Source: a virus
Lineage: Duplodnaviria > Caudoviricetes
Length of the DNA: 64,000 nt
Reading direction: 5' to 3' (one strand)
Virus record (IMG/VR): IMGVR_UViG_3300031867_000003
Coordinates: 138,176-202,175 of that record
Shown here: positions 8,447-34,078 of the stretch, piece after piece
How the letters are laid out: each line of letters opens with the position of its first letter
Numbering within the stretch: the stretch's first letter is position 1
Position numbers and translations under genes: made by a program
The notes under the pieces: generated by a model
Seen by the model: only the letters and a program-made list of their open reading frames with translations
Database searches by the model: none
What the model was told of the DNA's origin: nothing

Positions 8447-8583
8447 ATTTATCATTCCTTTCAACAATGATTATCCTTTCACAAATAAAAGCGCAGAAGA
8501 GCAGTGAAAGGTTCTGCTCCCACTAGGTTAATTACTCCTAATGTTTCTGCGCAGATAATAAAAAATACCTATGACAGTATTAT

Positions 8584-8655
8584 TTATTCAGTGGGAAGAA
8601 TCTGTTTGATTAATTCCGGCGTTGTTATATTGTTATATACTGTTTTACGTCCTAT
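8584..8655 (-). pseudogene. orphaned 5' end of a tyrosine recombinase gene
   Basis: AGAAGGGAG RBS, then (I)GRKTVYNNITTPELIKQILPTE*, which resembles the N-terminus of 6260..7264 (MARSRGVYNRIYTDEKWAKVNPEN). Confidence 0.55.
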
Positions 8656-8833
8656 AACAGATCACTCCCTTCTCATAAAATTTAACTTTCATCAACCAAA
8701 TAATATTCTATGGTTAATGGTATTACCACAAATTCCGTATTAGTTTGGAAATCTTCCATATAATGCGTTTTGCGCCGCCCAGTGGCCACCAGTGCGTTTG
8801 CTAGTGGCCACCCGGCGTTGCCAGTGGCCGGGG

Positions 8834-9580
8834 TTAATCAGCCACTTTTCGTTCAATCATAACGATGTAGTGTTTCGTCACCCGCTTGAGCAACGAGTTG
8901 GATGATACCTCATCCTCCATCAGCATGGAGGGCCATGCCTTTGGCTCGCGCTGCGAGCAGATAATACAGCTCCTTGACAATTCATTCCGTTTTTCCAGGA
9001 TGTCATACAGAGCCTTGACTTCATCATCCTCTGTGATTGGGTGCAGAAGAAAGTCGTCCAGGATCACAAGATCAAGGTTAATGATCGCCTTTACCTTCTT
9101 CTGATACTGCTTGAATTCGATTTTTCTGGCCGCGGCAAGCTCACTTACGAGTTCATCGCAATGATAGTAACCTACACGATATTCCCGGCATGCTTCGGCA
9201 CCAAGCGCTCTCGCAAGATAGGTCTTTCCGCTATCAGAAGCCCCGAAGATACAAAGGTTCATGCCTTCCCGTACAAAATCCAACGACGAAAGCGTATGGA
9301 CGATATCCAACGGTTGGTACTGGCGCTCTTTGGAATCAACACACTGGTCAAGACAGCTGTCACTTCCTTTCAGTTTTGCCTTCTTCAGACGCGATGTATA
9401 GCGGTTTGTAATCGTTACGATATATTCGGCGTGAATGATAGTACTGATCAACTCCAGACGTCCTGTATTAACAAAGGCCGGCTGCTTATAAAGTGTTTCA
9501 AGCTCTGCGGCCATATGCGGCAGTTTCAGTTCATCCAGCTCCTCCAGGATTGACTTCAGCTCCTTTGCTCCTGTATTCAT
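8834..9580 (-). CDS. istB: IS21 helper AAA+ ATPase IstB
   Basis: Walker A GASDSGKT, Walker B LVILDD; ATGA overlap with istA. Confidence 0.95.
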   Translation of the reverse strand: MNTGAKELKSILEELDELKLPHMAAELETLYKQPAFVNTGRLELISTIIHAEYIVTITNRYTSRLKKAKLKGSDSCLDQCVDSKERQYQPLDIVHTLSSLDFVREGMNLCIFGASDSGKTYLARALGAEACREYRVGYYHCDELVSELAAARKIEFKQYQKKVKAIINLDLVILDDFLLHPITEDDEVKALYDILEKRNELSRSCIICSQREPKAWPSMLMEDEVSSNSLLKRVTKHYIVMIERKVAD

Positions 9581-11193
9581 TGCTGCGCCTCCTTTCCGGA
9601 CTGATCCGCGAGGGTACGGCTGCGATTCAGCAGTTTTTCCATGTCGGAGTAACTGCTGTCCATGATGTAGGAGCCTTCGTTCCGCTTTTTATTCTTATCG
9701 GTGTTGTAACCTTCAGAGCCAAGTTCTTCGGCTACCGCGCCAATGGTGGTTTTGATATAGGTGTAGGTCGTCCTCTCAGCAGCGAGAGCGCGCCTGCAAC
9801 ATTCCTCCAGGGCAGAGCGGCTGTACTTCTTTGTGAAGCCAAGAACGCCCACACAGAGCCTGTAGGTCTGAACTTCCAGCTTCCGGCTCTTCAGGATCCG
9901 CTTAATTACTTCCGTAGTGTTGCTGCCAACTGTGGATGCTTTCCGGATAAAGTAGGTGCTGTTCCATTCCGAAAAATCCTCGTAGTTTTTCGGCAGACGG
10001 CTGGAGTCTGTTTTCCATTCGCCTCTGTAGGTTGCCCGTGGCCATTCGATAATCAGTTCGCCTTCGAGACTGAAGATCTTGACAACGGAGGCAGTTGCAC
10101 GAATGATGACTTTTTTGTGCAGATACGCTTTGTCTACGCTATAATAAGCATTGTCAAAGCGGATGTGGAAGTCGCTTGACACCTTTGCCGTGGCCCTCTC
10201 CATGTAATGGTACTGCGTGGAGGGGAGCGGCATCAGCTCTTCCTTTTCTTCTGCCCAATAGTAGGAGCGGCAATGCTCCTTCTTCTTAAACGGAGCGTCA
10301 TTCAGCTCATCCAGCTTCTCCCAGAGGTCTTCATTGAACTGCTCAAGCGAGAAATATCTGCGTTCTTCCAGTTCATGGAAGAACCCTTTCTCGAGAATGC
10401 CAACCGCGTTTTCCACAGAAGATTTGAAACGGGGTTTCCGGACCTTGGCGGGAAGAATCACGGTGTGGTTGTGCTCCGCCCATTCTGCGTAGTCCTGATT
10501 CAGTTCCGGCTGTATCCAGTCCTTGTTTGCGATCACGGCCTGTTTGCAGTTATCGCAAACGACGATAGCGGGAACGCCGCCAAAAGCCTTCAACGCGTTG
10601 TTATTGACCTCGATCCACTGCATCTCCTTTGTGGATTCCATACCCTCAGCGTAGATGTACTGGGAATACGGAAGGATAGCAACAAATACGACGATCGGTG
10701 TGATCTCGCCGGTAAGACGGTTGATCAGATCAAATGTCTTGCCTGCAAAGTCGACTTCCATCGTCTGGGCGATCACGGCTGTAAAGTGTGCTGTTTCGTA
10801 GTTTTCCTCGCACCACTTGCCGAAGAGCTCACAGAACTGCCGGTACTGGTATGGTTTCTTCTCCTCGGCATTGCAGCGCTTGACATACCGGTCCCAGCAC
10901 ACCTGAAGCGTCATGTTCTTTCTTTCGTTCATGAGCTTCAGAACCTTCGGGTAGTCGGGGTACTCGTAGCTTTCATCTCGACCGCCTTCGCCCGGCACTT
11001 TGCCATACACCTTCATGGCAATTCCGGCGTTTGTGATCCCGGGCGGGAGTGGGAAGTCCAGATCTTCGCACTTTTCGAATGCGTGGATAAACTTCTGTAT
11101 CCCGGATTTGCTCATACCGGTTTGCCGGCTGATTTCTCTCACCGACAACTTGATCACGAAGTATTTGTTGAGAATGTCTCTGTAGTCTAGCAT
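9577..11193 (-). CDS. istA: IS21 DDE transposase IstA
   Basis: N-terminal HTH; EVDFAG, VCDNCK, KPRFKSSVEN motifs. Confidence 0.95.
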   Translation of the reverse strand: MLDYRDILNKYFVIKLSVREISRQTGMSKSGIQKFIHAFEKCEDLDFPLPPGITNAGIAMKVYGKVPGEGGRDESYEYPDYPKVLKLMNERKNMTLQVCWDRYVKRCNAEEKKPYQYRQFCELFGKWCEENYETAHFTAVIAQTMEVDFAGKTFDLINRLTGEITPIVVFVAILPYSQYIYAEGMESTKEMQWIEVNNNALKAFGGVPAIVVCDNCKQAVIANKDWIQPELNQDYAEWAEHNHTVILPAKVRKPRFKSSVENAVGILEKGFFHELEERRYFSLEQFNEDLWEKLDELNDAPFKKKEHCRSYYWAEEKEELMPLPSTQYHYMERATAKVSSDFHIRFDNAYYSVDKAYLHKKVIIRATASVVKIFSLEGELIIEWPRATYRGEWKTDSSRLPKNYEDFSEWNSTYFIRKASTVGSNTTEVIKRILKSRKLEVQTYRLCVGVLGFTKKYSRSALEECCRRALAAERTTYTYIKTTIGAVAEELGSEGYNTDKNKKRNEGSYIMDSSYSDMEKLLNRSRTLADQSGKEAQQ

Positions 11194-11528
11194 AGGCTAC
11201 CTCCTAATAAGAATCTCCATCGCTATAGGTGGGCGTTCTCATTATAGGAGATAACGGTATTCAAAACTCAATAAACCCGGCCACTCGCTCCGCTCCGTGG
11301 CCACTTACGGCCGCATAAGCGGCCACTGGGATCCGCCGTATGCAATATAATTCATAAGCACTATATCTGCGATATCTTTATCATATGTTTTAGTAGCCAA
11401 TTCAATATTAGTTACAATTTCCCATTTATGGTCATGTAATGAACGTAGATATACAGTTTTTCCTTCTGCATCAATGGAGGCTATTACATATTTATTTATA
11501 GTTTTTTCCAATTGCTTTCTCATAATAT

Positions 11529-12662
11529 TTATTTCCTTTTAATTCCTTTATTATTTATTAGTTTTAAATTATCAATAACATAGTCAATGTCTGATTGTGT
11601 CGTTTCATAATCTAGTGAAAATCGAATAGAAGCGTTTGCATCATCATCCGATAAACCGATCGCTTTCAGCACGTATGACGGTTCATCGGAATCTGAATTA
11701 CATGCGGATCCGGTAGAAACATAAATTCCACTCATATCTAACATTCGCAGTATCTGTTCTCCTCGACATCCCTTAAAACACACATTTAAATTTCCCGGTA
11801 ATCGATTATTAAAATCTCCATTAATAACTACGTTGTCGAATTCCTCTAAAAGCTTATTAGCAAAATAATTCCTTAAATAAAGAATGTTTGCCGTATCTTT
11901 TGAATTATTTAAATTCACAATTATATCAGCAATGCAACCAAAACCAACAATTGCCGGCACATTTTCAGTGCCAGAACGCTTGCCAAATTCTTGTCCTCCA
12001 CCATAAATAAGTGGTGATATATCTATCCCGTTTTTCACATATAGGAATCCTATTCCTTTCGGACCATGAACTTTATGAGCACTTACACTCATCATGTCAA
12101 TATTAAGTTTATTTACATCAATGGGAATATGACCATATGCCTGAACCGCGTCGGTGTGGAAGATTATATTATTTTGATGAGCAATTTCTCCAATTTCTCT
12201 TATTGGCTGAATAGTACCGATTTCATTATTGGCACTCATTATAGATATTAGTTTTGTGTTAGGAGTTATGGCATTTTCTACATCTTTAGGATTGACTATT
12301 CCACCATTATCAACCCCTATATATGTTACGTTAACACCTTTTTTCTCAAGTGCCCAGCACTTATTTAAAATAGCATGATGCTCTATTACACTAGTTATTA
12401 AATGATCGCCAGGTTCGAGAATACTCAATGCCCAGTTATCACTTTCTGTACCCCCGAACGTAAAATATATTTCTTCGGGAAAACAACTAATTGTTTTTGA
12501 TAAATTCTCCCTAGAAACATTTACAAGTTCTTTAGCTGCATTTCCGACCATATGAGTAGAAGAGGGATTACCATAATATCTAGAATATACACTGTACATT
12601 TCCTCTATTACTCCTTGATATGGTTTTGTTGTAGCCGCGTTATCTAAATATACTTCTCGCAT
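11529..12662 (-). CDS. iscS: cysteine desulfurase (IscS/NifS family)
   Basis: YLDNAATT, HTDAVQ, SAHKVHGPKG (PLP lysine), RSGTENV, STGSAC (catalytic Cys); AAGGAG RBS before ATG 12662. Confidence 0.93.
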   Translation of the reverse strand: MREVYLDNAATTKPYQGVIEEMYSVYSRYYGNPSSTHMVGNAAKELVNVSRENLSKTISCFPEEIYFTFGGTESDNWALSILEPGDHLITSVIEHHAILNKCWALEKKGVNVTYIGVDNGGIVNPKDVENAITPNTKLISIMSANNEIGTIQPIREIGEIAHQNNIIFHTDAVQAYGHIPIDVNKLNIDMMSVSAHKVHGPKGIGFLYVKNGIDISPLIYGGGQEFGKRSGTENVPAIVGFGCIADIIVNLNNSKDTANILYLRNYFANKLLEEFDNVVINGDFNNRLPGNLNVCFKGCRGEQILRMLDMSGIYVSTGSACNSDSDEPSYVLKAIGLSDDDANASIRFSLDYETTQSDIDYVIDNLKLINNKGIKRK

Positions 12663-12672
12663 AGTATTCTCC

Positions 12673-12909
12673 TTACGTAAGTTCATGCTTACACCATAAA
12701 TCAAAATATTTCTTGCTCTGCTCCCGATTAAAAATAAAACATAATATCGGGTCTCCTGTGTTAAAATCCACGCTTATATACAAATCAAGAAGTTCACATC
12801 CATGTTTTAAATATAAAGTGGCTTGTCTTACATTAACTATGCGGACGCCGTCCTATGGATAATAATCTTTTCCCGTTATATCTGAATGAATATCATTAAT
12901 GTCTCTCAT
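12673..12909 (-). CDS. small hypothetical protein (code 15, 1 TAG)
   Basis: MRDINDIHSDITGKDYYPQDGVRIVNVRQATLYLKHG...DLWCKHELT; absent from the code-11 track. Confidence 0.7.
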
Positions 12910-12940
12910 ACCTTTTATTCCTTCCTTAAAAAATCGTAAA

Positions 12941-12981
12941 AAAAGGGGACAACCACAAAACGAATGTGTAGTCGTCCCCTA
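12941..12981 (-). terminator. rho-independent terminator-like hairpin
   Basis: GGGGACGACTAC...GTGGTTGTCCCC followed by a T-run on the minus strand. Confidence 0.55.
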
Positions 12982-13036
12982 ATATGTGATCCGGTCATGC
13001 CGGTTCACTCCGTATCTTATAATCACATTCACTAAT

Positions 13037-13516
13037 TTATTTTGCCGCAAATTTTGGCTTAATCTTCTTATTCTGATAACTCTTATTTTGGTTATCATTC
13101 AGAGGTTTATTATCTTCAATAGTCTTATCGCCATCCGAAGATATCTCAGCTTCTTCATGTTTCACATCTGAGACTTCGGGATTAACTTCCGGTGTCTCAT
13201 TTTTTAACGCTGACATAATTGCCTTGGCATTAGTAGTATCAATCTGCTGAAGCTGATTAATCGCGTCTTTCACCCAATCCGGAAGCTTCTCAACATACTC
13301 TTTATCAAGCGTAAGTTCGCTAAGTCTAGCAGCTTCAATTTCCGGCTTAAGCCAATGATTTAAAAATCCAGCAGTAATATTGTAAATCTCTTTACATCTT
13401 TCAGAACAATATGCGTCCATCCAACGCGGTAATCTATCAAAGTCTGAGCAATTAGGGCAATACTGATATGTCGAAGAGCAAATAGTACACTGCCTTTCAA
13501 ATTTCTTTTTTGCCAT
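13037..13516 (-). CDS. Cys-rich hypothetical protein after the major tail gene
   Basis: CTIC...CPNC...CSERC motif; GGAGG RBS. Confidence 0.7.
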   Translation of the reverse strand: MAKKKFERQCTICSSTYQYCPNCSDFDRLPRWMDAYCSERCKEIYNITAGFLNHWLKPEIEAARLSELTLDKEYVEKLPDWVKDAINQLQQIDTTNAKAIMSALKNETPEVNPEVSDVKHEEAEISSDGDKTIEDNKPLNDNQNKSYQNKKIKPKFAAK

Positions 13517-13704
13517 TGTCGTTTCCTCCTTAGTAATCATAATTTTTCACTATATATAAAACGGATTATAAATACCGTATTCTTTTCAATATTAAATAAA
13601 ATAACGAATGTATGATTTAGTGCTTGATAATTAATTTAAAATGTTTTTTGAATAGAGCCGCCGGATTTGACCCCGGCGACCCCAGATTATTTATAAATAA
13701 TAAA

Positions 13705-14923
13705 TTATTCGTCTTCCTCGTCATCTTCAACAACATAGATGCTATAAAGTCTCTTATCAGCGTCGCAGTAAGAAACCTGAAGCTGTCCATTAAAGTCGAT
13801 AGTTTGGTTGTCGGAACTCAGTGACACTTCGCTTTCCGGCGATACCTGGAAGGACGGAATGTCGATATATGCTGCACGAAGTGTATCTGCGGAGCAAGGA
13901 TCGACACAAAGAACCTTGAGAATAAGACGGATAGTTCCCGGGAACTTATCAGCTTTATTAATCATCTCAACAGCACCAGCTGTTGCGGCTGTGCCGTCAA
14001 GTTCACGATCATAACGAATCATGTACTGAGTATAATCGTTGCTAAGCGGAAGAGTAAGAACTCCCGTCCCATCATCATAAGTAAACGTAGAAGCTGTAGC
14101 ACTACCACCAGTCTGGAATGCAGTACCAAGAGTACCGTTGTTCTCCATGCCATATACCTTCGGAGTGCCGGTTACATATTTAAGAGTAACTGTCGGACCA
14201 TTAGATGCCTTAGCAATTGTGATACCAGGTGCGGTAATTTTATGATTTGCAGTAGCCTCAATTTTACCGGAACCCGCTTCAGAACCAAGAATATTAAGAT
14301 TAATGAAAGCGTTAGTTGCGGTAAACTCACCAGTTTTTGCTCTCCAGAAACGTTTCACGAGGTTGCCGTCTTTATCGGTAACATCATTAGATTCTGCGGT
14401 AATATTAAGAGTAGCTTCCTAAAGCTAGGTGAGTGTATAGAGAACGTTGCCGTCAAAGTCTTCAGCAGTTGCGACCTGGATACGGTCAATAATCAAATCC
14501 TAGTTTTCTTAAAAAGAAAAATGTTCACATGGGGTCGCTAGTCCCATGTAGTTCTCAAATGAACTTCTTATTGTTTCCAATAAGTACAGACTATATCTTA
14601 TTCTACAGCATTACCTGTTTAGACCTAACCATTTCGAGAGTCAATAGCTTACTCCCTACTTTCTCTTATGAGAAATAGTCGTTGAACCTTACCTTACGGT
14701 CTTGGCTGCTGATTGCCCATTGTTAACGGTACTTAGGATTTAACCATATACCATATAGTAATTTTTTTCTACTTTCGTAGCTCTCACGTATATATCTATT
14801 AGATATTGCGTTGTAGCTTCACTATCTTTAGGGGTTCCCAGCAATTAGATTAGTTATTATAATTATGACATATACATATTTCTATATATGCTGACTAGAT
14901 TATTAATCAAGCTTGAATGCCAT
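13705..14923 (-). CDS. major tail (tube) protein, spliced: exon1 14923-14906, exon2 14499-13705; code 15
   Basis: Spliced product MAFKLD|DLIIDRIQVATAEDFDGNVLYTLTQLQEATLNITAES...KRFWRAK (270 aa), in frame with ORF 13705..14358. Tail identity is inferred from position and remembered family resemblance. Confidence 0.8.
14500..14905 (-). ncRNA. group I intron (406 nt, no ORF) in the major tail gene
   Basis: P AATTGCTGGGAA, Q AATCAGCAGC, R GTTCAACGACTA, S AAGATATAGTCT; exon ends in U with a U.G pair in P1 (CUUGAU/GUCAG); terminal G; P10 AAUC/GAUU; removal restores the frame. Confidence 0.92.
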
Positions 14924-14994
14924 AATACATTTCTCCTTTCATAATATTTTTTATCATTTTATTGTATTAACCGATTATTTCGGGTTATACCAAG

Positions 14995-15789
14995 TTATTT
15001 ATTATCACTATTTAAATCTCTCATAAAATTAAATGATTCCTTTGGAACTTTAGACATGTCCGCAAATCCACTCATACTACCGGCTAACAGCGCCCGTGTA
15101 TTTTCATAGATTTGTAAACGCTGCACAGAATCCATAAACACAACATAGTTAATATCCTTAAGCTACTCAAGATTGTACTTAAACCCGGGATGATTAATGC
15201 ATGCAGAAACTAACGGCAACAATGCGGAAGTAGGAGCATCCCCATCTTTTTTTTGACGAGCCAAATTCTGCTCATCCTCCCAAATAATTGCCTCCTTCGT
15301 CGCTTTACCTTTGGCTTTTTCAACCTTAGGATGAATGTTGAAAGCAGTGCGATAATACTCTGAAATTGTAGTATAATCCTCTTCGCTAATTTCTATATCA
15401 TCTGCGGCATCATAAAGAGTTACTACCTATGAATCAACCAGATTACCATCTTCATCCTCTTGCTAAACATTTTTGGCATATAAGTCGAATTTCTCCCAGT
15501 CTATGTCTCCAAATAATAATTTTGTAACCTCAGGAGTTTGACCTTTATACAACATAAGGAATAACTGATAATCTGTTATTTTATTCCAATCAACGCCAGC
15601 ATTCCAAAGTTGAAGCCGATATGTCGTTGGATTACTGACCCATATATTTAGCGAACTGTAAAATGAAATGTCCGCATCAGGCAAATAAAGGATGTCACCA
15701 ATTGTCGGAATATATAGTGTCATACCATTGCCGACTTCATACGGTAGTCCAAAATACATTTTTAATGGGTTGAATTTAAACTCGCCCAT
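14995..15789 (-). CDS. tail-region protein (code 15, 3 TAG)
   Basis: The frame of ORF 15463..15798 continues to TAA 14995 with TAG=Gln. Confidence 0.75.
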
Positions 15790-15790
15790 A

Positions 15791-16357
15791 TTAACCACCT
15801 ATTTTATTTACTACACGCGAAACATTGTCTTTGGTTTTAACAATGTCTTTGCCCATAACCATTTCGAACGTTATAGTGCGAGTAGCATAGTCATTATCCG
15901 TAACAGACGGCAAATCCGACAGCACATGACATTGTGTTCCAAATTTATTTGTCCAATTAAATAAATGTTTTATTCTGGCAGCAATTAAATCGTGACGAGC
16001 AATACCGGTAAGTTTTTCAATACCGTTCTTTTCTTCACAAAGTATATAGAAAATAATATCTACATACATAAGACTGTCATTGTATCGAGGGGTTTCTTTA
16101 AATTGCACCTCATAACAAATAAAATTCTACACATTGTGCTGAGTAGGATGAATCATGTAGTACGGAAGTATATTAACATCTAAATAATCGCTTGGGTCTG
16201 CATTCTCATCCTCAAGTTCCTTGTTGTTTAATAAATAAATAATCAAAGGATCATCTATGAGAGTTTTTTTAATAATTTCTTTAAAACGAATATTATTATC
16301 ATCCATTGTAATCTTATAGGCACGAAGTTCCTGAAGTTGTTCAGTTGTTAATTCCAT
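15791..16357 (-). CDS. putative tail-completion/terminator protein (code 15)
   Basis: ORFs 16127..16357 and 15791..16108 join through one TAG (HNVQNFICYEV). Confidence 0.7.
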
Positions 16358-16370
16358 AACTCATACCTCC

Positions 16371-19107
16371 TTACAACGCAATGATTTCAATTGGCAACGA
16401 AGCAATTATATCTTCGCCGTCAACTTTATATGTTACAGTAAGTATTTTGCCGATATACGAATCGTCTCCCAAGAACTTAACCTTAACATGATTATCTATT
16501 ACAGATAACGTCAGCAATTCTTGTGGAACAGAATTCCCGTCTATAGAAAATTCCCAAGTACCGGGAAGTGTATCTATCGACGTACCGTCTTCGTCGGCAA
16601 ATACCACGGTGAATGTTTTGGCAGAGCCGCCTATACGAATCTGCTGTTTACCTGAGCATGTAATTGTAGTAGTGGTAGTGGGAGTTGGGATAATATCATC
16701 TACCGGAACAGCCGGAGTAGGTTCTACTTCACTAGCTTTCCAATCCGCCCACCAAGCAACTACATTGCCATCAACATCATAATCAGCTTTAAGTGTATGT
16801 TGATTAGCAAGATCTTGCGCACAAGTAAAAATCGCAATTCCTTTAGAATTTGAACGATTTATTTTACTAATCTAAAATACGCGAGGTTCTGTTAATACGT
16901 TGGCATCTATCACCAAGTAAGTGTTATAATATAAATGTTCCGTATCACGATTTAACGGAAGACAGAACTAGGTCTAGTCTTCTGGTTGCTAAAATTTATA
17001 CATATACGTTACTTTATCAAGTCGTTAATTTGATAAAGAATTATTTAATTCATTTAAAAAAGCCAAATACTTAGAATGTTTTCTTTCTAAATATCTATTC
17101 GCATCATAGTATAACCAATCCATGATTTTTATTACATTCTTTTTGCTTAATGTTTGAAGAACGGATGTAATATCATTTTCCTCTGGATGAGCGAGTTGAA
17201 GACTTAAATTTACACCTAATTTATTTTGAAATATTTTATTAACACTATTACAAAAATCAAATGTAGATATTATCTTAAATCCACACCTTAAAAGCCCATT
17301 ATCTTGAAACGTATAAAAACTTCCGTCCCCGTCAAAATAACCCCTTATAAAATGTGAATGTAAAAAATCTGGAATGTCTGGGAACGTCAACATCAAACTT
17401 TTGTTTTGAACCATTCCTTGCTCTACTAAAGAATTTGATAAATGTTTACTTGATAGTTCTAAGCATATCTATGGTTTAACATTATCAGCTTTTATTAATC
17501 TATCTCCAATATACGAATCTCTTTTAATAATTTGTCGCAGTGGTCTATTAGATCCTATATCTTCACTAAATTTTTCTATTATTTCACGATCATCAATTTG
17601 TAAGTCTAAATGTATCGCATTCCTAGGAACATTATTACAACCATCCGCATACAATAATCCCAAGTAATATGCCTTATCTTGGGTATCTATTATATCAAAA
17701 TACTCTTCATTTAATGAATATTTTCTACGACCAGGATTCTTTATTCCTAGATTAATAAATAATTCAGATATAAATCTCTAGCTAACATTATTTTCTTCAG
17801 ATAATTTTTTAATAGATTTCCCAGACTTATATTCATCGATATGGTTATCAATATTCTCCAAAAACAATTTTCTATTGTATTTTGCATCTTTATTATACAT
17901 ATAATTAATCCTCCTTCAAAAGATATAATGTATGCTATAATAAAAACAGTAATTTTTATGTTGAAGGCATAAAAAAACGGTTTGCAACCCGCTGTCCTGT
18001 TTTTATTCAAAATGATTAAATAATTTTTCTTATACTTTCATATAAGATCGGACTATATCTTTAACCGCAATTGCGGTTACTTCCCACTGGACTTACTTGA
18101 GCCACTTAGTCTCTGAACTTTACCCTCATCAAGTCTTAGCTGCTGATTATCCAATATAATATATTTTTTGACTATCACGCTTAGATGTATCTCATTATTA
18201 CGTTGTAGTTATACTATCTCTAAGGAAGTTCCAGCAATTCAAGAAGTTTTCATCGTATTATTACTAATACGTGCGACTATTTCTAATCGAGCCATAATCC
18301 ACTCATTATGTTATCATAAGGCTTTTTATCCTTATCTCTTACTGTCGCCAGTAAGATCAGCATATGTTTTCTCCATATCATTAACTTGACTTAGGAGTCG
18401 GACACTCGTGGGAATATTATATTTATTCAATTCCTATGCGTTACAATACTTCGCAGCCTTTCGCTATCTGCGAAGTTATCTCGGCGTTGTCTACGAGAGA
18501 GTTCCACCGATTTTGCCCGATTTTCACTCATAAGTTTCCTTATAAGGCAACAATTTTTATTGTAAGAATTTTGGCTCCTGCTGACCCCAGGGAACTCATA
18601 ATATTTCCCATCTTTAATCCAGCGGAACACTTCGTCACAACGAAGTACTTCCCAAGTCGGAAACATATTTTCATCCCGGTCAGCTGTAGCAACCACTAAC
18701 CATCTACGGTATATGTCATCTTCTCCCTTTAGCCAAACATAAAGACCAACTGGATATCTAGCTCTATACCGCTTACCAAACACTTCTTCGTAATAATCAA
18801 CACCGCACTCATGACCTGGTCTAAACTAAATATGCATAGTCTATTCATCTTTTTGAAATGTCTTAGAACTATGTGCAATAAATTTCACATCTATAGGGGT
18901 TGGATTTGTATCCTCTTCCGGGTTAAATCCTTCAAGACGAAGTCTATTCTGCGGCGCGGTATGGTAGTAATCGAAGAAATATCCAACCTAATACTAAACA
19001 TCCTATGCAAACGTAGCATCCATGATTACATCACTTTGCTACTTCCTCGCCCTCCCCGGTACACTAATATTATTGTGCATTGCCTAAAAATCTCTGTAGG
19101 TAATCAT
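16371..19107 (-). CDS. head-tail/neck protein, spliced from 3 exons (19107-18559, 18303-18286, 17000-16371), about 398 aa, code 15
   Basis: Spliced junctions read ...RSQNSYN|SGLWLD|YKFQQPEDQTQFCLPLNRD...; all exons are multiples of 3; many in-frame TAG. Confidence 0.8.
17001..18285 (-). ncRNA. group I intron carrying a LAGLIDADG homing endonuclease
   Basis: P AATTGCTGGAA, Q AATCAGCAGC, R GTTCAGAGACTAA, S AAGATATAGTCC; P1 CGAU/GUCG; terminal G at 17001 (an in-frame alternative G at 17007 is possible). Confidence 0.92.
17025..17900 (-). CDS. intron-encoded double-motif LAGLIDADG endonuclease (code 15, 2 TAG)
   Basis: KAYYLGLLYADG and HFIRGYFDGDG motifs in one frame once TAG=Gln; GAAGGAGG RBS. 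Confidence 0.9.
18304..18558 (-). ncRNA. group I intron (255 nt, no ORF)
   Basis: P AAATCGGTGGAA, Q AACGCCGAG, P7 GCATA/TATGC; P1 CAAU/GUUG; terminal G; removal restores the frame. Confidence 0.85.
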
Positions 19108-19108
19108 A

Positions 19109-19902: not shown

Positions 19903-19917
19903 GGGATACCTCCTTTA

Positions 19918-20601: not shown

Positions 20602-20634
20602 CTTTATTCTCCTTGTAATCCTATATAGTCCTTA

Positions 20635-22371: not shown

Positions 22372-22429
22372 AACTATATTTTCTCCTTTCTTATTTTTTA
22401 TATAAAAAAATAATAGGCTAAATAACCTA

Positions 22430-23998: not shown

Positions 23999-24032
23999 TT
24001 TAATTATCTCCTTTCAAATAAAAAAAGAATCC

Positions 24033-24245: not shown

Positions 24246-24261
24246 TTAAAATTTACCTCTT

Positions 24262-25935
24262 TCATTTTTTGCTTCTCAGTAATCCATCGAGAAAACTTGT
24301 ATTATAATCAATTCTACCAAATGCAAAGAAATCTTTCTTCGGTTCTTCTTTCTTCTCGGAAGTATCCGCCGCAAAATTCAATTTTCCAGCCTTTGCATAC
24401 TGAAGCAGAATTGCGTCAGCCTTATCTTTGACCTCATCAACTGTAAGATTAAAATAATTCTCACGTTTCTTAAGATCTTCAAATTCCTGAGTACCAGCAA
24501 TACTTGTATAATCTACGGAATTAAGAACTTCAACCTTCTCGGGTTCAGATTCGTATTTAGCAAGTTTATCAGAAATATCGGAATAATTACTCTTCATAGA
24601 CTCAAGCTGAGCTTGTTCGTCTTTGCTTAAATACGTACAGAATACCTCTGTGCGATCTCCCTTTAAGGAATAAACATCCTTCTTTACTTGATATGACTGA
24701 CGGTAATGTTTACCATTCCAATAATCATGCATATACACGATTTTCTCATCATCCAGTGCGTCCACGTCATACCAGGCATTATCGCTTTCTCCGTAAGTGG
24801 AGTTCACAAGCTCATAAAGTGCGTTAAGTTTCTCCATTAACGTAGAAGAGAATGTCTTTACTTCACCGTTGAAAGAAACGGTTTTGTCGATACTATATTT
24901 TTTCTGCTGACCGTTATTAAGTACACCGTCATCAGTAACTACATCTTCCGGTTCTTCTTCCTCGGAATCGTCAGTGGTATCTTCTCCATCAAATTCATCA
25001 ACCACTTCGGGAGTTTCTTCGGTAACTTCTTCTTCCACTTTTCCAGAAGCTTCTGTGTCAGTAACCTGAGTTTCCTCATCAATGGTTTCATTTAATTCGA
25101 TGTTTTCTTCCTCAATAGTTTCATCTACTTTGTTTTCATCAAATTCCAAACCATGTTCCTCCTTTCTTTGGTCGTTATTTATATGATTATCAAGCTTATT
25201 CATAACAGCTTGCGTAATCTCGTCAATTAACTCTGCTTTATTAAACATAACAGAATTATTCTCGGCACTAAAATCAGCTATATCTAATCTGGCACCTTCC
25301 ATACCTTCTCCGATTTCTTCTCCGGAAACGGGATCTACTCCGAGCAATGTAGCTCCTAACACAACGACATCCTCGAGAATAAGTTCCTTCTCTTTTGAAT
25401 CGTAAGACATTTTATTTACGCCCAACTCAGCGGAAAGTTTTGTTCCACCCTTACGTTCAATAATATCGGCAGCAGCAGTGTAGTTTCTCGGAATTGCACA
25501 TTTTGCAAACAGATATTTTCTGTCTTCATGCTCAGAATCCTATTCAATATATGGTTTATCTGCGGTAAAACATCCTACTTGTTTTTCATAGTATGTAATA
25601 GAACCATCATCATTAAACTCAAAATCATGAGATGTAAAATCCAATTCTCCGTTTACATCTGTAAAATTTGCAAGAATCGGTTTATATGCAACAGTAGAAG
25701 CGCTATTCTTCAAACCTTCCTCCGTTAAATTTGACCGGTTTTTGTTGCGTCCACAATGCATGAGTTTAACTGTACCAAGCAATAAAGAATCATCTTCTGA
25801 TTCTTCTTTATCAAATACCGCCGGTACTTGTACGCTTAGCTGATACCCAGTCTATTTCGAATCAAAAGAATTGAAATTTTGCTATTCACAAAATTCAATT
25901 AAATTCTCTAATGTCAGAATTTTCTTCTTCAACAT
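24262..25935 (-). CDS. prohead protease/scaffold fusion (YonD-like), code 15
   Basis: ORFs 25540..25782 and 24262..25425 join via TAG; HCGRNKNRS and KLSAEL motifs, acidic scaffold-like C-terminal half. Confidence 0.75.
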
Positions 25936-25982
25936 ACTTCCTCCCTTCTTTTTAGAATTTCTCTCCAAAGAATAGGAGAGTA

Positions 25983-26165
25983 TCAAAATGTTATTTTATT
26001 TGTAAAATTTACCTTCATACTGTCATCAGCAGAAAACATTAAATTGGTATTATTAATAAATACCCACTGAGTGCCTTCCTTTGGAAGTTCTTCATAGCCG
26101 AGTTCTCGCAACTTCTCGGCGGTTTCTTCATCAGATGTATGAATAAAAAATTGTTTATCCTTCAT
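25983..26165 (-). CDS. small hypothetical protein
   Basis: MKDKQFFIHTSDEETAEKL...; AGGTG RBS. Confidence 0.65.
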   Translation of the reverse strand: MKDKQFFIHTSDEETAEKLRELGYEELPKEGTQWVFINNTNLMFSADDSMKVNFTNKITF

Positions 26166-26169
26166 AATA

Positions 26170-26394
26170 TCACCTACAAACATCATTAATTATGTCGGCA
26201 GTTTTCGTAAGTTCTTCACGGGTCTTTTCACTAAACCCAGCGTCGGCAACTAATGCCTACGCAAGATATAGACAAAAGTTTAGAAGAAATTCATCCTCTA
26301 CATCAGTAGTAGATTCATCACCATTAAATATCTTATCTGATATTTGATTATATTTTTCTATACACTCGGTTGTATTCGGGTAAAAATTTTTCAT
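26170..26394 (-). CDS. hypothetical protein (code 15)
   Basis: Frame continues through TAG 26257 to TGA 26170. Confidence 0.55.
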
Positions 26395-26510
26395 TATCCT
26401 TTTTATCTCCTTATTTATTCTTTTTTTAATTATCATAATCACAGAATAGGAGAGGGGTTAGGACACCTCTCCGTATAAAGTTTGTAACTCCTTATATTAT
26501 TCTGTGTGAG

Positions 26511-26827
26511 CGGCGGAGTTGGGACTTGCACCCAAACCGACGGGCTCAGAACCCTGTAGTTTTCTTACCACATTATGTTTCCATAACCGAATATTATTCG
26601 TTGTAGTCTGGGACATCTCATTACCATATTTAATAATATATTAAACTTAGGTAGAAGCTCTATGTCCTCCACACATTTATAAGATATAATAATCTTAATT
26701 TAGCTCGGGATTGCCATATACAAAACGTACTTAGGTGTTCCCCGAATTAGGCTTCTTTTCAATTGTATTTTTCAACACAATGCTCCAAAACATCAGAGAC
26801 TACCTGTGCTGCTTACACCACTCCGCT
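26511..26827 (-). tRNA. amber suppressor tRNA (anticodon CUA) split by a group I intron; exon1 26827-26795, exon2 26563-26511
   Basis: Spliced 86-mer: AGCGGAG TG GTGT AAGCA GCAC AG GTAGT CTCT|AAA ACTAC AGGGTTCTGAGCCCGTCGGT TTGGG TGCAAGT CCCAA CTCCGCC G. It has a perfect 5-bp anticodon stem and the loop CU-CUA-AA. Confidence 0.85.
26564..26794 (-). ncRNA. group I intron (231 nt) inside the anticodon, between positions 35 and 36
   Basis: P AATTCGGGGAA, Q AATCCCGAGC, P7 GGACAT/ATGTCC; P1 CUCU/GGAG with U.G at the splice site; P10 GUUUU/AAAAC; terminal G. Confidence 0.88.
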
Positions 26828-26919
26828 AAAACAATAAATTAAATTATTAACGCAATGCCACGTTAAATCCATCAAATAAAATAATAGAGCGGGAGATTAG
26901 TCCCGCTCTAAATTACTAA

Positions 26920-27327
26920 TTATAAATATTTGTCATAAAATTCATCATTAACTAAATCAACAACTTTATCAAGAATATCAAGGTTTTTAATGGCATCATT
27001 TAATTCTTTATAAAGATATCTATTCGGAACAGGATTATGTGCTACGTCTCCATAGACACGAAAATCATGCTCTGCACAATCTACAAAAGATTCACATTCA
27101 GTTTCATCTATATTATAAAATACTACGCCAACTGTCTCTTCATATTTCCCGGTAGAATCATTATATTTGCAAATCAAATAATTATCATCTGGATAATCTG
27201 TAGACTTAAACCATGATATAATTTCATCACCTGGTTCATTATCACAACTATAAATAACATCATAATCAACACGATAAACCGCACCACATATACTTAATAT
27301 ATTATTTAGTTTTAGAATTTTATACAT
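26920..27327 (-). CDS. hypothetical protein
   Basis: ORF with AGGAG RBS, followed by the hairpin GAGCGGGA...TCCCGCTC. Confidence 0.65.
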   Translation of the reverse strand: MYKILKLNNILSICGAVYRVDYDVIYSCDNEPGDEIISWFKSTDYPDDNYLICKYNDSTGKYEETVGVVFYNIDETECESFVDCAEHDFRVYGDVAHNPVPNRYLYKELNDAIKNLDILDKVVDLVNDEFYDKYL

Positions 27328-27353
27328 TCACTTCTCCTTTTATATCCTTTAAT

Positions 27354-28934
27354 TTACGCAATTGTACTGCCCGTATTTCTACTTCTTTCAGCACTACCGC
27401 TTAAATCATCATCGTCCGACCTAGGTCTTCCGACCGTGTTACTGGAAGTATTATAACTTGATTTCAAAGGTTTCATCATATCTTTGATACCAATAGCATT
27501 CTCAAACCTAATCTTGTTAATTGCCTTATACGGTGTTCCTTCAATAACAGATAAATAGTCCAATGCCGGACCACCTAATGTTGCGGAATCTTTATATCTT
27601 TGGATATAATCATCCTCATTAAACCAGGTTATTCTCAATATCTCAAAGATATACCCCTTAGATATATTTTCCGCAATATAAAAATTCAGCCAAGATTCCA
27701 ACCTATTTACCCAGACCCACACATTTGATTGATCCGCAAGCTGAGCAAATTTAATAGCTAGATTAGAAGTAGAATTTCCACCGGACACAACTGTTTGTGT
27801 TAATCCGCTGTTGGAAAACAGATTATTTATAGATTTCGCTAATGCATCTGTATCCGACGCATGTGACGTATCATTAAACGTAATTTTATCAATGTCGAAC
27901 GGAGCAGTAATAACACCGACCAAATCCGGCACTGACTGTTCCTCAAGCTGTCGAAAATAATTAACCATCTCCATTGAGATAGCAAAATCATCAACATCCC
28001 CGCTGTTACCATTATCCACTAACGGTATCTTATTCACAATCAAAGCATAATTCTCAAGTTCTGTTTTAGATTGAAGAATCTGCTGCAAATCAAGTAAATC
28101 TAATAAATCCGTAAACAGCGGAAGAAAATATGGCAATGGGAACGAGAACTCATCTTCCGGACCAATCAATAAAACACAACATTTTTCAGGCGGTAATCTA
28201 AACCATTGATAATCACGTCCGCCATCCTTATATGAACGGTATCCGTTAATAAATACCTCATCCCAAGTTGCATAACTTCCTTGCCCATCAACTCCGAGAA
28301 CAAACTCACTGTTGTTAGCAGCGTCAAAAAATGCAGCATTAAAATATACGACCCATTCTCCATACTCATTTTTTCCGACTATTCTGCAATATTGAACGTC
28401 TAGCGGCATTAAAAAAGTTCTTCCTTGTTTATTCTCATAAACGTACCCAGCATAAAATCCGTCACGGATTGCAAGATATAGTGCGGTATACATATCTTTC
28501 TTCAGACTAAACTTGTCAAAAGTCTCGAGTACTTTTTGATAACCCTTGAGCGCCTTATCCACATCTATCTCTTCGGCTAAATCATTTGCTTGAGTAATTG
28601 TATAATAGAACAACGGCATCGCCGCCATATACATAATCATCTTTTGATACAACATTGAATTCCTAACTAAAAATCTCGAAATTTCTCGAAGAGTATCTTG
28701 ATTGTTAGCCGGAGACTAAACATATGTTTTTACGAGATCTTTAGTATATTGCGTGAAAGTTCTGTTTACAGACCTAGTGGCATTACGCTGAAGAATTTCT
28801 TCCATCTTGGCAAATGTCATCGTTTGCGCACGATCACGCTTATAAGAAAAATCCTCCACATCCGCGGGGATTGTAGTTATTTTAGTTTCATTATTTTTGG
28901 GGCCGCCGTCAGCGGTTTTCTTTCTTGTTGCCAT
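27354..28934 (-). CDS. portal protein (YonE-like), code 15
   Basis: ORFs 28716..28934 and 27354..28655 join via one TAG; LREISRFL motif, C-terminal GRP; follows the terminase. Confidence 0.8.
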
Positions 28935-28949
28935 ACGGCACCTCCTTCA

Positions 28950-30707
28950 TTATTTAAATCTGGTTACTTTTCTAGGTTGGCGGAATGTAAATTGAGAGAA
29001 TAGAGAGTTTATATCTTGGTTTTTCGGTCTCAACTTTAACTCCAACTAACACGCACACCAATAATTATAAGCAATAGAAGAGTAACGGTCTTTACGCATA
29101 CCTGACTATTCTTTAACTTTAATGTTACCATTCTTAACCTCATGATCGAGTTTAATTAATTCATACTCTGCCATAGTTGTTTGCAAATACGGCATCTTTA
29201 TATATGCCTAATCAGTCGGAGAGAGTTTGGAATAGGGTTTATATAATTTTACCAATTCCTCTTCACATTCTTGTTCTGAAATAAGAAAGCTAATTCTACC
29301 ATTCTATATTCCATTTCTAAGCAATACACATATTTCGTTATTGAAAGTTGCACCAGCTTTTACTGACCAAACAACTTTATTTGCATCTTTAACTTTACAT
29401 CTAATAGCCATGTCTTCATCATTAATGCACGTTAACGCTTTATATGTTTTTCCAGTCGAAGAATCATATTGATCCTTACAAATAAAATCGAAAATTCCAA
29501 TTCCTAGTCCTCCTGTATCAACCACTAAGTCAGTGCATTTGTATTCATAGAAATAACGCATAACAATAATCCCAAGTTCGTCAGTTGTTAACCCTTCGAA
29601 AGTTTCTCCGTAAACTACATTTGAATGATAACTTATGTCATCCTACTGAATCGCACTATTGATATATAATGCAGCTGCGTCATTCTTCTTTTTCTTTGTT
29701 GATCCCATAAGAGCTACGTCAACAGAAAGAATTCGTTTTTCTGTTGCAGAAACATCGGGGACTTTGATTTTATCATTATAGAATTTTAGTGGTAATAAGG
29801 CGTTTTTGATTTTTCTCTATTTATTTATCTCTTCCCACTTAAAGAGATTATCACCATCATCTCCGACCCACATACATTCCATTTCCATAGTAAAAGCAAG
29901 TTCATTAAAGTCAGCTTCTGATTTTTCATCCATTACTTGATCTTTGGACAAAAGACCTTCTTTGATGCTTAATTGATATGGTAGTCCACAGCAAAAATAT
30001 CTCTTAGTGTCATCGAAAAAATTAACCACATATGCTTGTAACTTTTTCCATGCCCATGAACTTTTAAAATAAGCACTACTCATATATATTTCTTTATTTC
30101 TTTCTTGCAGATGAGAATACTCTGGCTTATTTAAATATCCCGGCTATCTAGGACTCGTTAAAAATTTACGAATAACCAAATTCAAAATAGTCTCATCAAC
30201 CATACGAAACTCATCAACTACAATGATATTCGCTCTAGCACCACGAGCATTATCTGTACTAGTTCTTGTTGTAATCCAAGAACCATTTTTAAACATAATA
30301 ATTGCATCATTCTATCCTATGTTACATTTTTCTATTTCAGTACATAAGATAGGAGACATTTTCATTAGTTCATCCTGTATTTTTAACAATACTCCATTTG
30401 CCTATTTAAGAGTACCGGAACAAACAACAATCTTACTACCAGGATATAATATACATCTTACAACACAAAAGAGCGCAGTAAGCCAACTTTTTGACATACC
30501 CCTTGCGGCAATAAACATAAAGTAATTATAATGCATCATCGCCCATATTAATATCTTCTAAAAAAGCTTAAGGTGTATGCCTAATACTTCTTCAACAAAC
30601 CGCTCTGGATTTGCACGATAATAAGCTGCTCTAAAAGCAACTGTCTACATTATTTTCTGTTCTTTGTCCTGAGCAATTTCACGAACAGATTTCTTTTTTT
30701 CAGCCAT
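28950..30707 (-). CDS. terminase large subunit (YonF-like), code 15
   Basis: AARGMSKS (Walker A), [13 protein letters not shown] (Walker B), [22 protein letters not shown]; TAGs fall at expected Gln sites (LKLFQKILI, TLKQA, PRQPGY). Confidence 0.9.
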
Positions 30708-31762
30708 CACAATTCCTCTGTGGTTCCGAATATCTGATCAAATAGAGTTTCGGAATCTGTATCTTCATCGTATTGTGGTTTATCAACTGTGTATTTTTTG
30801 ATAAACTTTTCATACGTATGAGAAAATGCATTTTTTAGTCCCATCATACGAGACATATGACCTTTAAAAAATACATCAAGATAAAGTCCTATTTTATTAA
30901 CTGAACGAAATTCTTCGTCAGGCTCAGGAATAGGTTTTTCATTTTCCCATTTTTGTATCAACTGCCCAAATGTTTTAGCCTCTGTAAGTGCATTGGAATT
31001 ATTTTGATTAGGTTTTAATGACATACTCCCCATTAAATCTTGAAGCGTTTTATCTAATTCCTTTGTATCTTTACCAGCCTTTTGGGCCTTATCTATATCT
31101 AGTTCTTTAAAGCATATACGTTTAAATAATATTTCTTGTGCCTTATTTTCACAAGCATAACGCTTTATCCAATCTTGATATTCTGTCTCTAAAAAAATTA
31201 AATCAGAATTTGTATACCCATCACCAAATCGTTTTTTGGCTTGTTTCAGAGTTCTAGAATTTTCGTTTATCTCTTCCTCATCTTTATCGAGATAATCAGG
31301 GGGAAATTCTGAGTCTCTCCAGCTTTTATTTTTATACTGAAACAGACTTTTTACCATTACGATATACTGACTCCATGCGGTTCCTCTATGTTTATCTTGT
31401 ATATCCTCAGAGGTAGACGAAACAGCAGATTGATATAAAGAATCAATATAGGGCAAATCCATCATTCTAAGTACATCCATTGTTTTATCCCGATTATCAG
31501 TATATTGATTCGTTTTCTTATCATAATCACAAGCCATTTTAATTAAACATTTTTTGCAAATTGGAAACAGCCCACTTGAGTAACTTTTATCCGAATAAAA
31601 AGCATCGGTATTGTGGAACTCATTACATTTTGGACATAGAAATACATCCCCATTTATTATGCGATTATAATCCTTAGCTAATTTATTATATTCTTGTCTA
31701 ACCTAAGCGACCCCAGTTTTTCTAATTTCCTCCTCTGTAAGTGCTTGTTTTAATCTAATCAT
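30707..31762 (-). CDS. putative terminase small subunit (YonG-like, CxxC zinc finger), code 15
   Basis: CPKC...CKKC; TFGQLIQKWENEKPIPEPD; immediately upstream of TerL. Confidence 0.65.
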
Positions 31763-32892
31763 AAAATACCATCCTTTTTATCATAACTCCACTTATATCC
31801 TTTATAACTATCTATAATACCCTTGCAACAATCACTTATGTTGCTCATATTAAATCCATCAACTACAACATCGGATAATCTATTATATGTTTTAATTAGT
31901 ACCCCATCCAAATCCAGTTGTAATATTTTTCCACGATATCTTTTTCTAATAGTATTACATAACTCATAACATTTTTCAGGAGTAAAATAATCTAAATCTT
32001 CCTCATAACAAAATACAAATCCCTTTACTGTATTTCTTTTCCTCTGACAACATTCCCTAACCATCCTAATATGAAAACCACTCCGTGTAACATCATGCAT
32101 AGAATCATACATTTTTACAATAGCCCCATTTTCATCTAATTGAACAACCCTTTTAGCCTTCATCCTATTATGTACATTATTTATATATTCTAGATATTCA
32201 TCTGTTAATATATAATAATCATCCTCATAAATATAAATATAACCATGAGACACCAAAGTCCCATTAGTCCTTGATCTTATTGGATTATATCCTAATTCTA
32301 ATCTCGCTATTTTACACGTTTCCCATTTTTTAAGAATATTCCCAGATAAATCACACTGTAGTACAGGTGCAACTTTTCTTTCATCAAAATACCACTGCAA
32401 GCTGTCAAAGCCATGATAGTCTTCTAAGAAACAAAATATATATTTGTCTACCCTCTTTATTTTTTTATGCACACATAAATATATTGCGCTAGGATCTATA
32501 TTTAGTTCTCTGGCGGCCTGCGGGACATTGTTCCATTCTTTAATTAGGTTTCCAGACAAGTCAAATTGTAATACTACATGTATACACGAAGTACCTTGCC
32601 CTCCAAGAGTATTATTGTACCCATTACAATCAACAAATCCGTGATATGTCCTTAATCTATCTATCCAATATATTTCTTTTTCGTCTAATTCATTTTCATT
32701 ACATAATTCAATAATGGAAAAATCAAATTTATTTTCACCATGCTTATTCCACGAACTCTACAGATGACTATTCCCATGTTGATTCTTATTTAACAGCCTT
32801 TTATGGTCTTTCCATCTTCTGTTAATATCAACAGCTTGACCAACATACATTTTCCCATTATCCAAATTAGTAATTTTATAAATTCCAGTCAT
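31759..32892 (-). CDS. GIY-YIG homing endonuclease with NUMOD1-like repeats, code 15
   Basis: MTGIYKITN...MYVGQA...RRW...H; HLQSSWNKHG has TAG at the conserved Gln; repeated VLQ.DL.G..IK modules. Confidence 0.9.
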
Positions 32893-32988
32893 AACATTCC
32901 TCCTTTTCATAACAAAAAAGAGAGGGAGTGATTTCCCTCTCTAAGCAGTTATTCCGTCAGAATGTAGCCAGTATCATCACTGGTAAAT

Positions 32989-33057
32989 AGAATATGTACG
33001 ACTCGAACGTCTCCCCTTCGTCCCAGGCGAAGTGTGCTACCATTACACCACATACTC
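32989..33057 (-). tRNA. tRNA-Pro(TGG)-like, atypical
   Basis: GAGTATG TG GTGT AATGGTA GCAC A CTTCG CCTGGGA CGAAG ... TTCGAGT ... CATATTC; weak T stem, C33. Confidence 0.6.
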
Positions 33058-33138
33058 TAAAATAATAAATTTCACCACGGGAATCGAACCCGAAGCAGAA
33101 GAGTAGTAGTTACTCTCCCGCGTACCAACCTAAACAAA

Positions 33139-33240
33139 TCAATGTGTTATTAATTTAACAACATTGCAAAATGCAACCGTCATACTCCAGCCACCAAGAA
33201 CAGCTACAAGGTTGCAAATAATTTTGTCACGTAGGCGCAT
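33139..33240 (-). CDS. 33-aa hydrophobic peptide
   Basis: AAGGAGGTG RBS; MRLRDKIICNLVAVLGGWSMTVAFCNVVKLITH. Confidence 0.55.
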   Translation of the reverse strand: MRLRDKIICNLVAVLGGWSMTVAFCNVVKLITH

Positions 33241-33415
33241 AAACTCACCTCCTTAAAAATCAGCTTTCCAAAAGTTGACCTATAAGTCAAAAATTGGAAT
33301 CAGATATAACATCTGGAAATTATATCAAAAAGCAGACGACATTTCTGATTCCAGAAATTATTTATATTTAAATATATACTTTAATAAAACGACAAAATCG
33401 CCATAAGATAACTCT

Positions 33416-33973
33416 TTATCTTTTTTGTTTTATTTCTTGAAACTGAATCTTTGCCCATATGGAGTCTTCATAAAACTTTATAATCCAAGGCTCAAATTCA
33501 ATACCTCTACACAATATAAACGGATTTACAGTAATCCATTTTTGCCCGCCACGTACATGAAATCCAATAACATCCTTATCTTTTAAAGAATTCATTATTT
33601 TCCTCAATGTATCATACTTCATATTTCTTATTTCGGCTAAGTCCTTAATCGACAAAGCTTTACCACGAGCATCTCCGTTTTTTCTTAAGACGCAATCACC
33701 ATAGCAAACAAAATGTATAAGAAATATTAAAGTAGCGACTTCTGGATTTGTAAGTCTTTTATCCAATTCTAATTCAACCCCTCTGAACAATTTAGAGAAA
33801 GTATATTCTGTCATAAACGGAATGCGTTCATCTTCCTCGGCATTATCCGGTACGGATTCTTCAATAATTATCCTATAATTCTTATTTTCTTCCGGCTCAA
33901 TTATTTCACCAGTCTAGTCATTAAATACTTTTCCCAAATTATTTAATACGGTTCTCTTAGTTTTATTTTTCAT
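33416..33973 (-). CDS. RepL-like winged-HTH protein (code 15)
   Basis: N-terminal DQTGEI (TAG read-through), HTH, VNPF motif. Confidence 0.6.
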
Positions 33974-34078
33974 AATCCTCATCCCTTCTCCATCCGATTA
34001 TTAAAATCAGCGGAATAGGACACTCGGATGATAAATGTCCCCATAAGGCTCATGACTTCCTCATGTTTATCCGCAAAG

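Follow-up and report, generated by a model that had tools for sequence, protein, structure and literature searches.

What does a compact three-stem structure do when it recurs ahead of several genes in one phage genome, and is it an RNA element at all? The question is raised by a stretch of 64,000 nucleotides (nt) from a Caudoviricetes virus (IMG/VR record IMGVR_UViG_3300031867_000003, positions 138,176 to 202,175), hereafter the window, which is the final part of a 202-kb phage record present in bovine gut metagenomes. At four minus-strand sites of the window (S1 to S4) an initial annotation, made from the sequence alone, had proposed one and the same architecture, a closing stem (P1) that encloses two hairpins (P2 and P3). 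We consider it probable that these sites are copies of a ~65-nt structured 5' leader, which travels as a unit with homing-endonuclease-type genes and whose P3 loop would pair with the initiation region, keeping translation of the nuclease low. The range of this leader comprises a clade of TAG-recoded cattle-gut phages and unrelated uncultured phages. A phage has to keep the dose of a homing endonuclease low and its timing right, and how this is managed is known only from a few T-even examples.

Fold and conservation of the leader

P1, P2 and P3 form the minimum-energy structure (RNAfold) at all four sites, with z-scores from -2.9 to -4.7, and the proposal of a shared junction is thus upheld. 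All four sites lie on the minus strand. S1 (8491-8552) has the P1 stem GCGCAGA/UCUGCGC, the P2 loop AG-UAAUUA-A and the P3 loop AACCUUUCA (-27.1 kcal/mol, z -4.2), and S2 (17939-18007), which begins 22 nt past the end of a group I intron core, has the P2 loop G-UUGCAA-A and the P3 loop CCUUCAA (-18.3 kcal/mol, z -3.5). The P2 loop of S3 (26440-26506) is AG-UUACAA-A, one change from UUGCAA (-24.5 kcal/mol, z -4.7); that of S4 (34010-34074) is AAG-UCAUGA-G, accompanied by the P3 loop AUCAUCC (-24.0 kcal/mol, z -2.9). Throughout the four sites, P1 measures 5-11 bp, P2 has a stem of 5-7 bp and a loop of 8-10 nt, and P3 has a stem of 7-9 bp and a loop of 7-10 nt, almost no bases being left in the junction. 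When S4 is folded together with its start region, an alternative fold is preferred, in which the 3' side of P2 pairs with the start region. A strict compact-junction descriptor gave 14 matches on both strands of the 202-kb genome, S1 to S4 all among them, against a mean of 4.8 in 25 dinucleotide shuffles, and six matches against 0.56 at or below -21 kcal/mol; since this descriptor was written after seeing the four sites, its count alone is weak, and the decisive test for the fold is comparative. Loose three-way-junction topologies are too unspecific to use, with 1090 clusters in the genome by an RNALfold scan.

Close relatives of this phage (genome G000) were found via the portal protein, namely G001 (190 kb) and G002 (132 kb), together with more distant ones. 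In the S3 orthologues of G001 and G002, the palindrome of the P2 loop is perfect (UUGCAA), and a G-C pair of P3 is replaced by A-U, a compensatory change. In G002, the S4 orthologue is identical in P1 and P3 and differs in the P2 stem, the palindrome being UGAUCA instead of UCAUGA, and the S2 orthologue, 70% identical, stands before the homologous LAGLIDADG gene. A fifth locus (S5), present in both relatives, precedes an HNH gene. A covariance model (R1) whose only input was the orthologues of S3 and S4 recovers S1 (39.3 bits, E 1e-7), absent from its training set, and also a copy in an unrelated phage (L126, 28 bits). Furthermore, a pattern search in which the P2 stem was fixed and the six loop bases were left free returned 63 IMG/VR stretches, 10 of which are recognised as full elements by a model R2, nine with a palindrome and the tenth (L197) one base off. 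The S1-like leaders recognised in this way share with S1 the P2 loop, the P3 loop and the hairpin at the ribosome-binding site (RBS), and they head differing genes (GIY-YIG and several zinc-finger nuclease-type open reading frames, ORFs). Searches with shorter pieces were less productive: the exact S4 P3 pattern found only G002, and the matches of the 14-mer AGGAGTTGCAAACC are mostly due to chance, only L122 and L126 being real.

Compensatory changes are seen in all three helices. In a model-based alignment of 14 distinct sequences, 95.7% of the cells are paired and 21 of the 23 pairs show changes on both sides, counts that are somewhat inflated because the alignment was fitted to the model; its covariation score is 0.656 versus 0.241 in shuffles (0/500 reaching it), with slid controls at 0.23 or below. 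The S2 orthologue pair keeps all of its 24 pairs, eight of them with double changes, while slid controls give 0-1. The strand is also indicated, as G-U pairs are present and the model scores 80 bits on the minus strand versus 25 on the plus strand. By this comparative evidence, the leader is a conserved, strand-specific RNA structure, and its copies make up a real RNA family.

No already characterised Rfam family matches the element, and literature searches found no description of it. With Rfam 15 at gathering thresholds, the whole window yields only two group I introns and one tRNA, and permissive scans of S1 to S4 give only chance matches far below threshold. Ribozyme or tRNA-like readings were discarded, with no hammerhead, twister, HDV-like or other Rfam match at any site. 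The same holds for int-alpA (RF02996), also a small orphan structured RNA near mobile-element genes, which has no match at E <= 10 in G000, G001, G002 or G004 (threshold 35.8 bits) and is absent from the permissive scans of the four sites.

The P3 loop and the ribosome-binding region

The P3 loop had been said to be complementary to the downstream ribosome-binding region in three copies, and the complement does measure 8 nt at S1 and 7 nt at both S2 and S4. S1 possesses two such boxes. The first (8475-8482), GUGAAAGG, is the 8-nt complement of the P3 loop (CCUUUCAC) and lies 8 nt past P1; the second (8457-8463), UGAAAGG, lies at the Shine-Dalgarno (SD) site and is displayed in the loop of a small hairpin (AUCAUU/AAUGAU), which makes a loop-loop kiss possible. 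At S2, the box UUGAAGG (17913-17919), matching the loop CCUUCAA, overlaps the SD (GAAGGAGG) of the LAGLIDADG gene. The first box of S4 (33991-33997), UCGGAUG, is the complement of CAUCCGA, and the second (33979-33984), GGAUGA, is the complement of UCAUCC and covers the first AUG. Outside this genome, the loop CUCCUAA of the S2 orthologue meets UUAGGAG, UCCUAG of S3 in G001 meets CUAGGA, CCCUUUC of L163 meets GAAAGGG, and in L202 a 12-nt match covers the AUG.

As the pyrimidine-rich P3 loop contains CCU or UCC in every case, some match to an SD is expected. The observed match reaches into the gene-specific flanks and changes with them, taking in either the SD with three to four flanking bases or the AUG itself, and the pairing between loop and RBS co-varies both between orthologues and between unrelated members. 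In ten members, cognate complements average 7.6 nt versus 4.9 nt for non-cognate ones, and none of 100,000 permutations reaches the observed sum; among 1304 local folds of the genome that resemble a generic three-way junction, 2.4% have a complement of at least 7 nt. Two boxes are present in most members, the first 7-20 nt past P1 and the second at the SD or the AUG, and with this layout the loop may switch between the RBS and a decoy site.

On these grounds, the leader most likely limits the amount of enzyme made. Long-range pairing of the P3 loop with the RBS (a loop-loop kiss where the SD is held in a small hairpin loop, as in S1) would compete with the 30S subunit, and would keep nuclease translation low on read-through transcripts. 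P1 and its U-rich tail may also stop some transcription, and P2, a hairpin whose loop has the form AG-(6-nt palindrome)-A, would be a separate module that could pair with a second copy of itself. Such a module would be compact and programmable in design, as a change in the loop retargets it to a new RBS.

Several observations weigh against this interpretation, besides the inflated pair counts mentioned above. Neither S3 in the window nor its G002 orthologue has a loop complement, the match to the RBS being confined to the 3' arm of P2; the RBS of S3 in the window repeats the 8-mer AUAAGGAG found in the P2 5' arm, which could let the 3' arm pair with this RBS. A loop rich in CCU will match part of any SD. 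Where members have two boxes, the one nearer the junction, away from the RBS, often gives the better match, so that the loop might normally be kept off the RBS and a simple OFF pseudoknot may be an incomplete description. Finally, S2, its orthologue and S5 are found by neither R1 nor R2, even with filters off on the window, and are grouped with the family only by their architecture, the UUGCAA loop and the match between loop and RBS. A leader-peptide reading (an SD-like AGGAG in P2 followed by a start codon) was also considered; it fits only S4, by eye, and was dropped.

The closest known systems are the RNA structures that sequester the RBS and control I-TevI, I-TevII, I-TevIII, segB and Aeh1 mobE (PMC2988022). 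There too, a structured RNA stands directly before a phage homing-endonuclease ORF and is complementary to its SD, and it is assumed to limit or delay nuclease synthesis (PMC2988022). The T-even structures are single local hairpins with the RBS inside the stem, and they are relieved by a late promoter within the structure. In contrast, the leader described here is a closed three-way junction whose RBS sits 10-50 nt beyond it, and not within the stem of one stable local hairpin; it reaches the RBS via an apical loop, usually has two boxes, and bears an additional hairpin with a palindromic loop, while no internal promoter is known (a sigma-70 scan was uninformative). In its presumed function the leader resembles the T4 I-TevI hairpins, with a new architecture.

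The palindromic loop of P2

As originally described, the P2 loop holds a 6-nt palindrome at three of the four sites (TAATTA, TTGCAA and TCATGA as DNA), that of S3 being imperfect (TTACAA). The usual format of the loop is AG-(6-nt palindrome)-A, in which the sequence varies and self-complementarity is kept: UAAUUA, UUGCAA, UCAUGA and UGAUCA are found, and elsewhere UCGCGA and UUUAAA. The flanks are AG...A in S1, S3, L126 and the S1-like group, AAG...G in S4 and G...A in S2. Among the members validated by the models, only S3 and L197 have a palindrome one base off. In the pattern search with a free loop, the hexamer is palindromic in 16 of the 63 stretches versus about one expected, and a 6-nt palindrome occupies the first loop in 2.5% of the same 1304 generic folds. 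A symmetric DNA operator is made less likely by the unequal flanks of the hexamer, with two bases on its 5' side and one on its 3' side, as well as by the covariation of the stems and the presence of G-U pairs.

A P2-type hairpin is also found by itself (AUAAGG-AG-N6-A-CCUUAU) in other phages and in different surroundings, which suggests a stand-alone module. Its six central bases are palindromic in L150, L154 and L159 (UCGCGA, UUUAAA) and non-palindromic in L165/L172/L203 (UCUCAA).

Dimerisation through P2 is plausible by analogy with the retroviral dimerisation loops of the HIV-1 SL1/DIS type, in which a hexanucleotide palindrome is flanked by conserved purines (PMC5874298). The apical loop of P2 likewise combines a 6-nt palindrome with unpaired flanking purines, and its palindrome changes yet stays a palindrome. 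There is no homology between the two systems, the present one being a phage mRNA leader and not a viral genome, and several of its palindromes consist entirely of A and U (UAAUUA). A more specific proposal, which we put forward tentatively and regard as doubtful, is that P2 would be a true RNA dimerisation site and that the dimer would set the P3 loop on the decoy box versus the RBS, with nuclease translation depending on transcript concentration. Leaders with the same palindrome would then kiss, either between copies of one mRNA or between different nuclease mRNAs; UUGCAA is common to S2, the S3 orthologues, S5 and L126. If true, phages would possess a natural mRNA leader that dimerises and senses transcript concentration. 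The DIS-like loop may be an instance of natural mRNA-mRNA pairing in bacteria.

Two other junctions with palindromic loops deserve mention. The initial annotation had listed a further P2-like hairpin with a TAGCTA loop at about 52674-52692, which did not stand: it is not significant on the minus strand (z -0.2) and belongs to a different structure on the plus strand (52629-52708). The latter is a strong three-way junction (-35.1 kcal/mol, z -3.5) whose loops contain the palindromes GUAUAC and UAGCUA; U6 comes directly behind it, it has no match to the family models, and it resembles a branched terminator. Beyond the window, at 104998-105073 of the phage genome (minus strand), a compact three-way junction directly before a gene start carries the 8-nt palindrome GUCGCGAC in its first loop, the second loop being devoid of an RBS match.

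Mobile genes, cassette boundaries and other explanations

From about 49 kb down to position 1, the genes of the window lie on the minus strand, portal, terminase, structural and exonuclease genes included, and the region is dense in group I introns and homing-endonuclease genes. TAG read-through is required for intact ORFs in many late genes and in all four ORFs behind S1 to S4. These four had been described as two homing endonucleases, a RepL-like gene and a small ORF, which holds in part. The gene after S2 (17025-17900, minus strand as are all four; 291 aa, two in-frame TAG codons) is a LAGLIDADG homing endonuclease (phrog_4645, E 2e-51), and a small ORF without a family does follow S3 (26170-26394; 74 aa, one TAG codon). 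The ORF after S1 (7265-8446; 393 aa, four in-frame TAG codons) has only a weak HNH_repeat match below the Pfam cut-off, and the one after S4 (33416-33982; 188 aa, one TAG codon) belongs to no Pfam or PHROG family; protein-based IMG/VR searches returned no relatives of the S1 or S4 ORF. The RepL-like label lacks support from Pfam and PHROGs.

Considering all members, the element heads LAGLIDADG, GIY-YIG, HNH and unidentified genes and is located at cassette breakpoints, in agreement with the earlier idea that it travels with mobile genes. That a portable, strongly covarying RNA module precedes nucleases of three unrelated families, and recurs in uncultured phages unrelated to this one, speaks for a general solution passed from gene to gene. 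S4 and its ORF form an 818-bp cassette (33259-34076, minus strand) absent from G001, with blastn breakpoints that place one break 2 nt before P1. The motif GCUGAUUUU(U)AA occurs just past the S4 junction (33979-33997, minus strand) and at the 3' end of the cassette (33259-33275, minus strand), a short direct repeat at its edges. S1, for its part, is at the edge of a replaced integrase module: within 6260-8594 (minus strand), the homology to G001 and G002 ends inside the N-terminal codons of the integrase gene, the remainder being replaced by S1, the 393-aa ORF and a different integrase (28% identical). As the element marks the boundaries of mobile cassettes, it may aid the annotation of recoded, intron-rich phage genomes.

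Upstream, two copies had been reported to follow tRNA genes directly. For S3 this is correct, as it starts 4 nt after a suppressor tRNA-CUA split by a 231-nt group I intron (26510-26827, minus strand; called by ARAGORN with introns allowed, with a weak RF00028 match). For S4 it is less clear-cut: 5 nt before it ends a tRNA-like cloverleaf with anticodon CAU (34080-34151, minus strand), seen in the fold and missed by ARAGORN and Rfam because its D loop has no GG and its T loop is GGCAGAG. This cloverleaf may be a decaying or a specialised tRNA; its orthologue in G002, 78% identical and directly followed by the S4 orthologue, is called tRNA-Met by ARAGORN. S2 lies downstream of the group I intron core at 18029-18306 (minus strand; Rfam RF00028, 80.6 bits). 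In G001 and G002, S3 is preceded by a different, intron-less tRNA-CUA-like gene (L001, ~5815-5894; L003, ~5390-5468; anticodon arm CGCGG-CUCUAAC-CCGCG), which ARAGORN does not call because of its atypical T loop, and in G001 it is followed by a GIY-YIG endonuclease gene. The suppressor tRNA has thus been swapped between this phage and its relatives, while the S3 leader behind it was kept.

Terminator, recombination-linker and processing roles are less likely, and might add to the proposed translational control. An unlikely explanation, and the best of the three, is that the element is mainly a branched intrinsic terminator or insulator, in which P1 and a U-rich tract stop read-through from the upstream tRNA or structural gene and the nuclease gene is transcribed only from its own promoter. 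U-rich sequence does follow P1 in most members (UUUUAUUU in S1, UUUUAUUAAG in L126, UUAUUUU in S5), a U5 run lies inside and after P1 in S2, and P3 of S5 with its U-tract resembles a classic terminator. However, the U-tracts are weak at S3 and S4, a terminator scan flagged none of the four P1 stems (the scan being uninformative overall), neither the gene-specific loop complement nor the palindromic loop is required for termination, and a polar stop within an intron or an operon would be harmful to the phage.

Quite improbable, in our view, is a DNA-level module boundary or recombination linker, whose conservation would result from repeated recombination and not from RNA function. The comparison is with the PeSL mobile regulatory cassettes of T4-type phages, attributed to Arbiol, Comeau and Krisch in 2010, which reportedly consist of an early promoter and a simple stem-loop. 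These cassettes too are short structured elements with a regulatory role, which lie beside variable ORFs and delimit modules; the leader differs from them in being a three-way junction whose loop matches the RBS, and a promoter was not identified in it, the sigma-70 scan being uninformative. A linker would account for the position of the element exactly at homology breakpoints, for the S4 cassette being present or absent between phages, for S3 being kept between different tRNA-CUA genes upstream and different genes downstream, for S1 at the edge of the replaced integrase module, and for nearly identical S1-type leaders heading different nuclease genes. Nonetheless, the stems covary instead of keeping their sequence and use G-U pairs, the model fit is strand-specific, and an RBS-complementary loop is an RNA-level feature, with which a linker role could coexist.

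There is similarly little to recommend a processing or stability element, in which cleavage at a site marked by the junction would release the nuclease mRNA from the tRNA or intron RNA upstream, or the junction would shield the 5' end of the mRNA. It is true that S3, S4 and the G002 copy of S4 begin 2-5 nt past a tRNA or tRNA-like 3' end and that L126 follows a T-arm-like sequence, but upstream of other members lie protein genes, a terminator or an intron core, and the gene-specific loop complement would be left unexplained. Lastly, we give almost no credence to chance structures in AT-rich spacers picked by eye, which the abundance of loose topologies and the after-the-fact descriptor might favour, and which the comparative data (orthologue covariation and the recovery of S1 by a model trained on other copies), the excess of palindromes in the free-loop pattern matches and the permutation test on loop and RBS already contradict.

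Some neighbouring features complete the picture. An HNH/NUMOD gene that follows a tRNA-Pro is preceded by two separate hairpins (32911-32990, minus strand), the second G+C-rich and terminator-like with a U-tract; as this leader has neither a closing stem nor a match between loop and RBS, not every endonuclease gene here has a three-way-junction leader. An IS21-family element lies inside the phage at ~8763-11250 (minus strand; istA 9577-11193, istB 8834-9580), with a GC content of 43-45% versus ~33% in its flanks, and is absent at this locus from G001 and G002. Besides, at ~52755-52795 on the plus strand there is a stretch that resembles the 3' portion of a tRNA (T arm CCGGGUUCAAUCCCCGG) and might be the remnant of an attachment site, since the phage encodes tyrosine recombinases.

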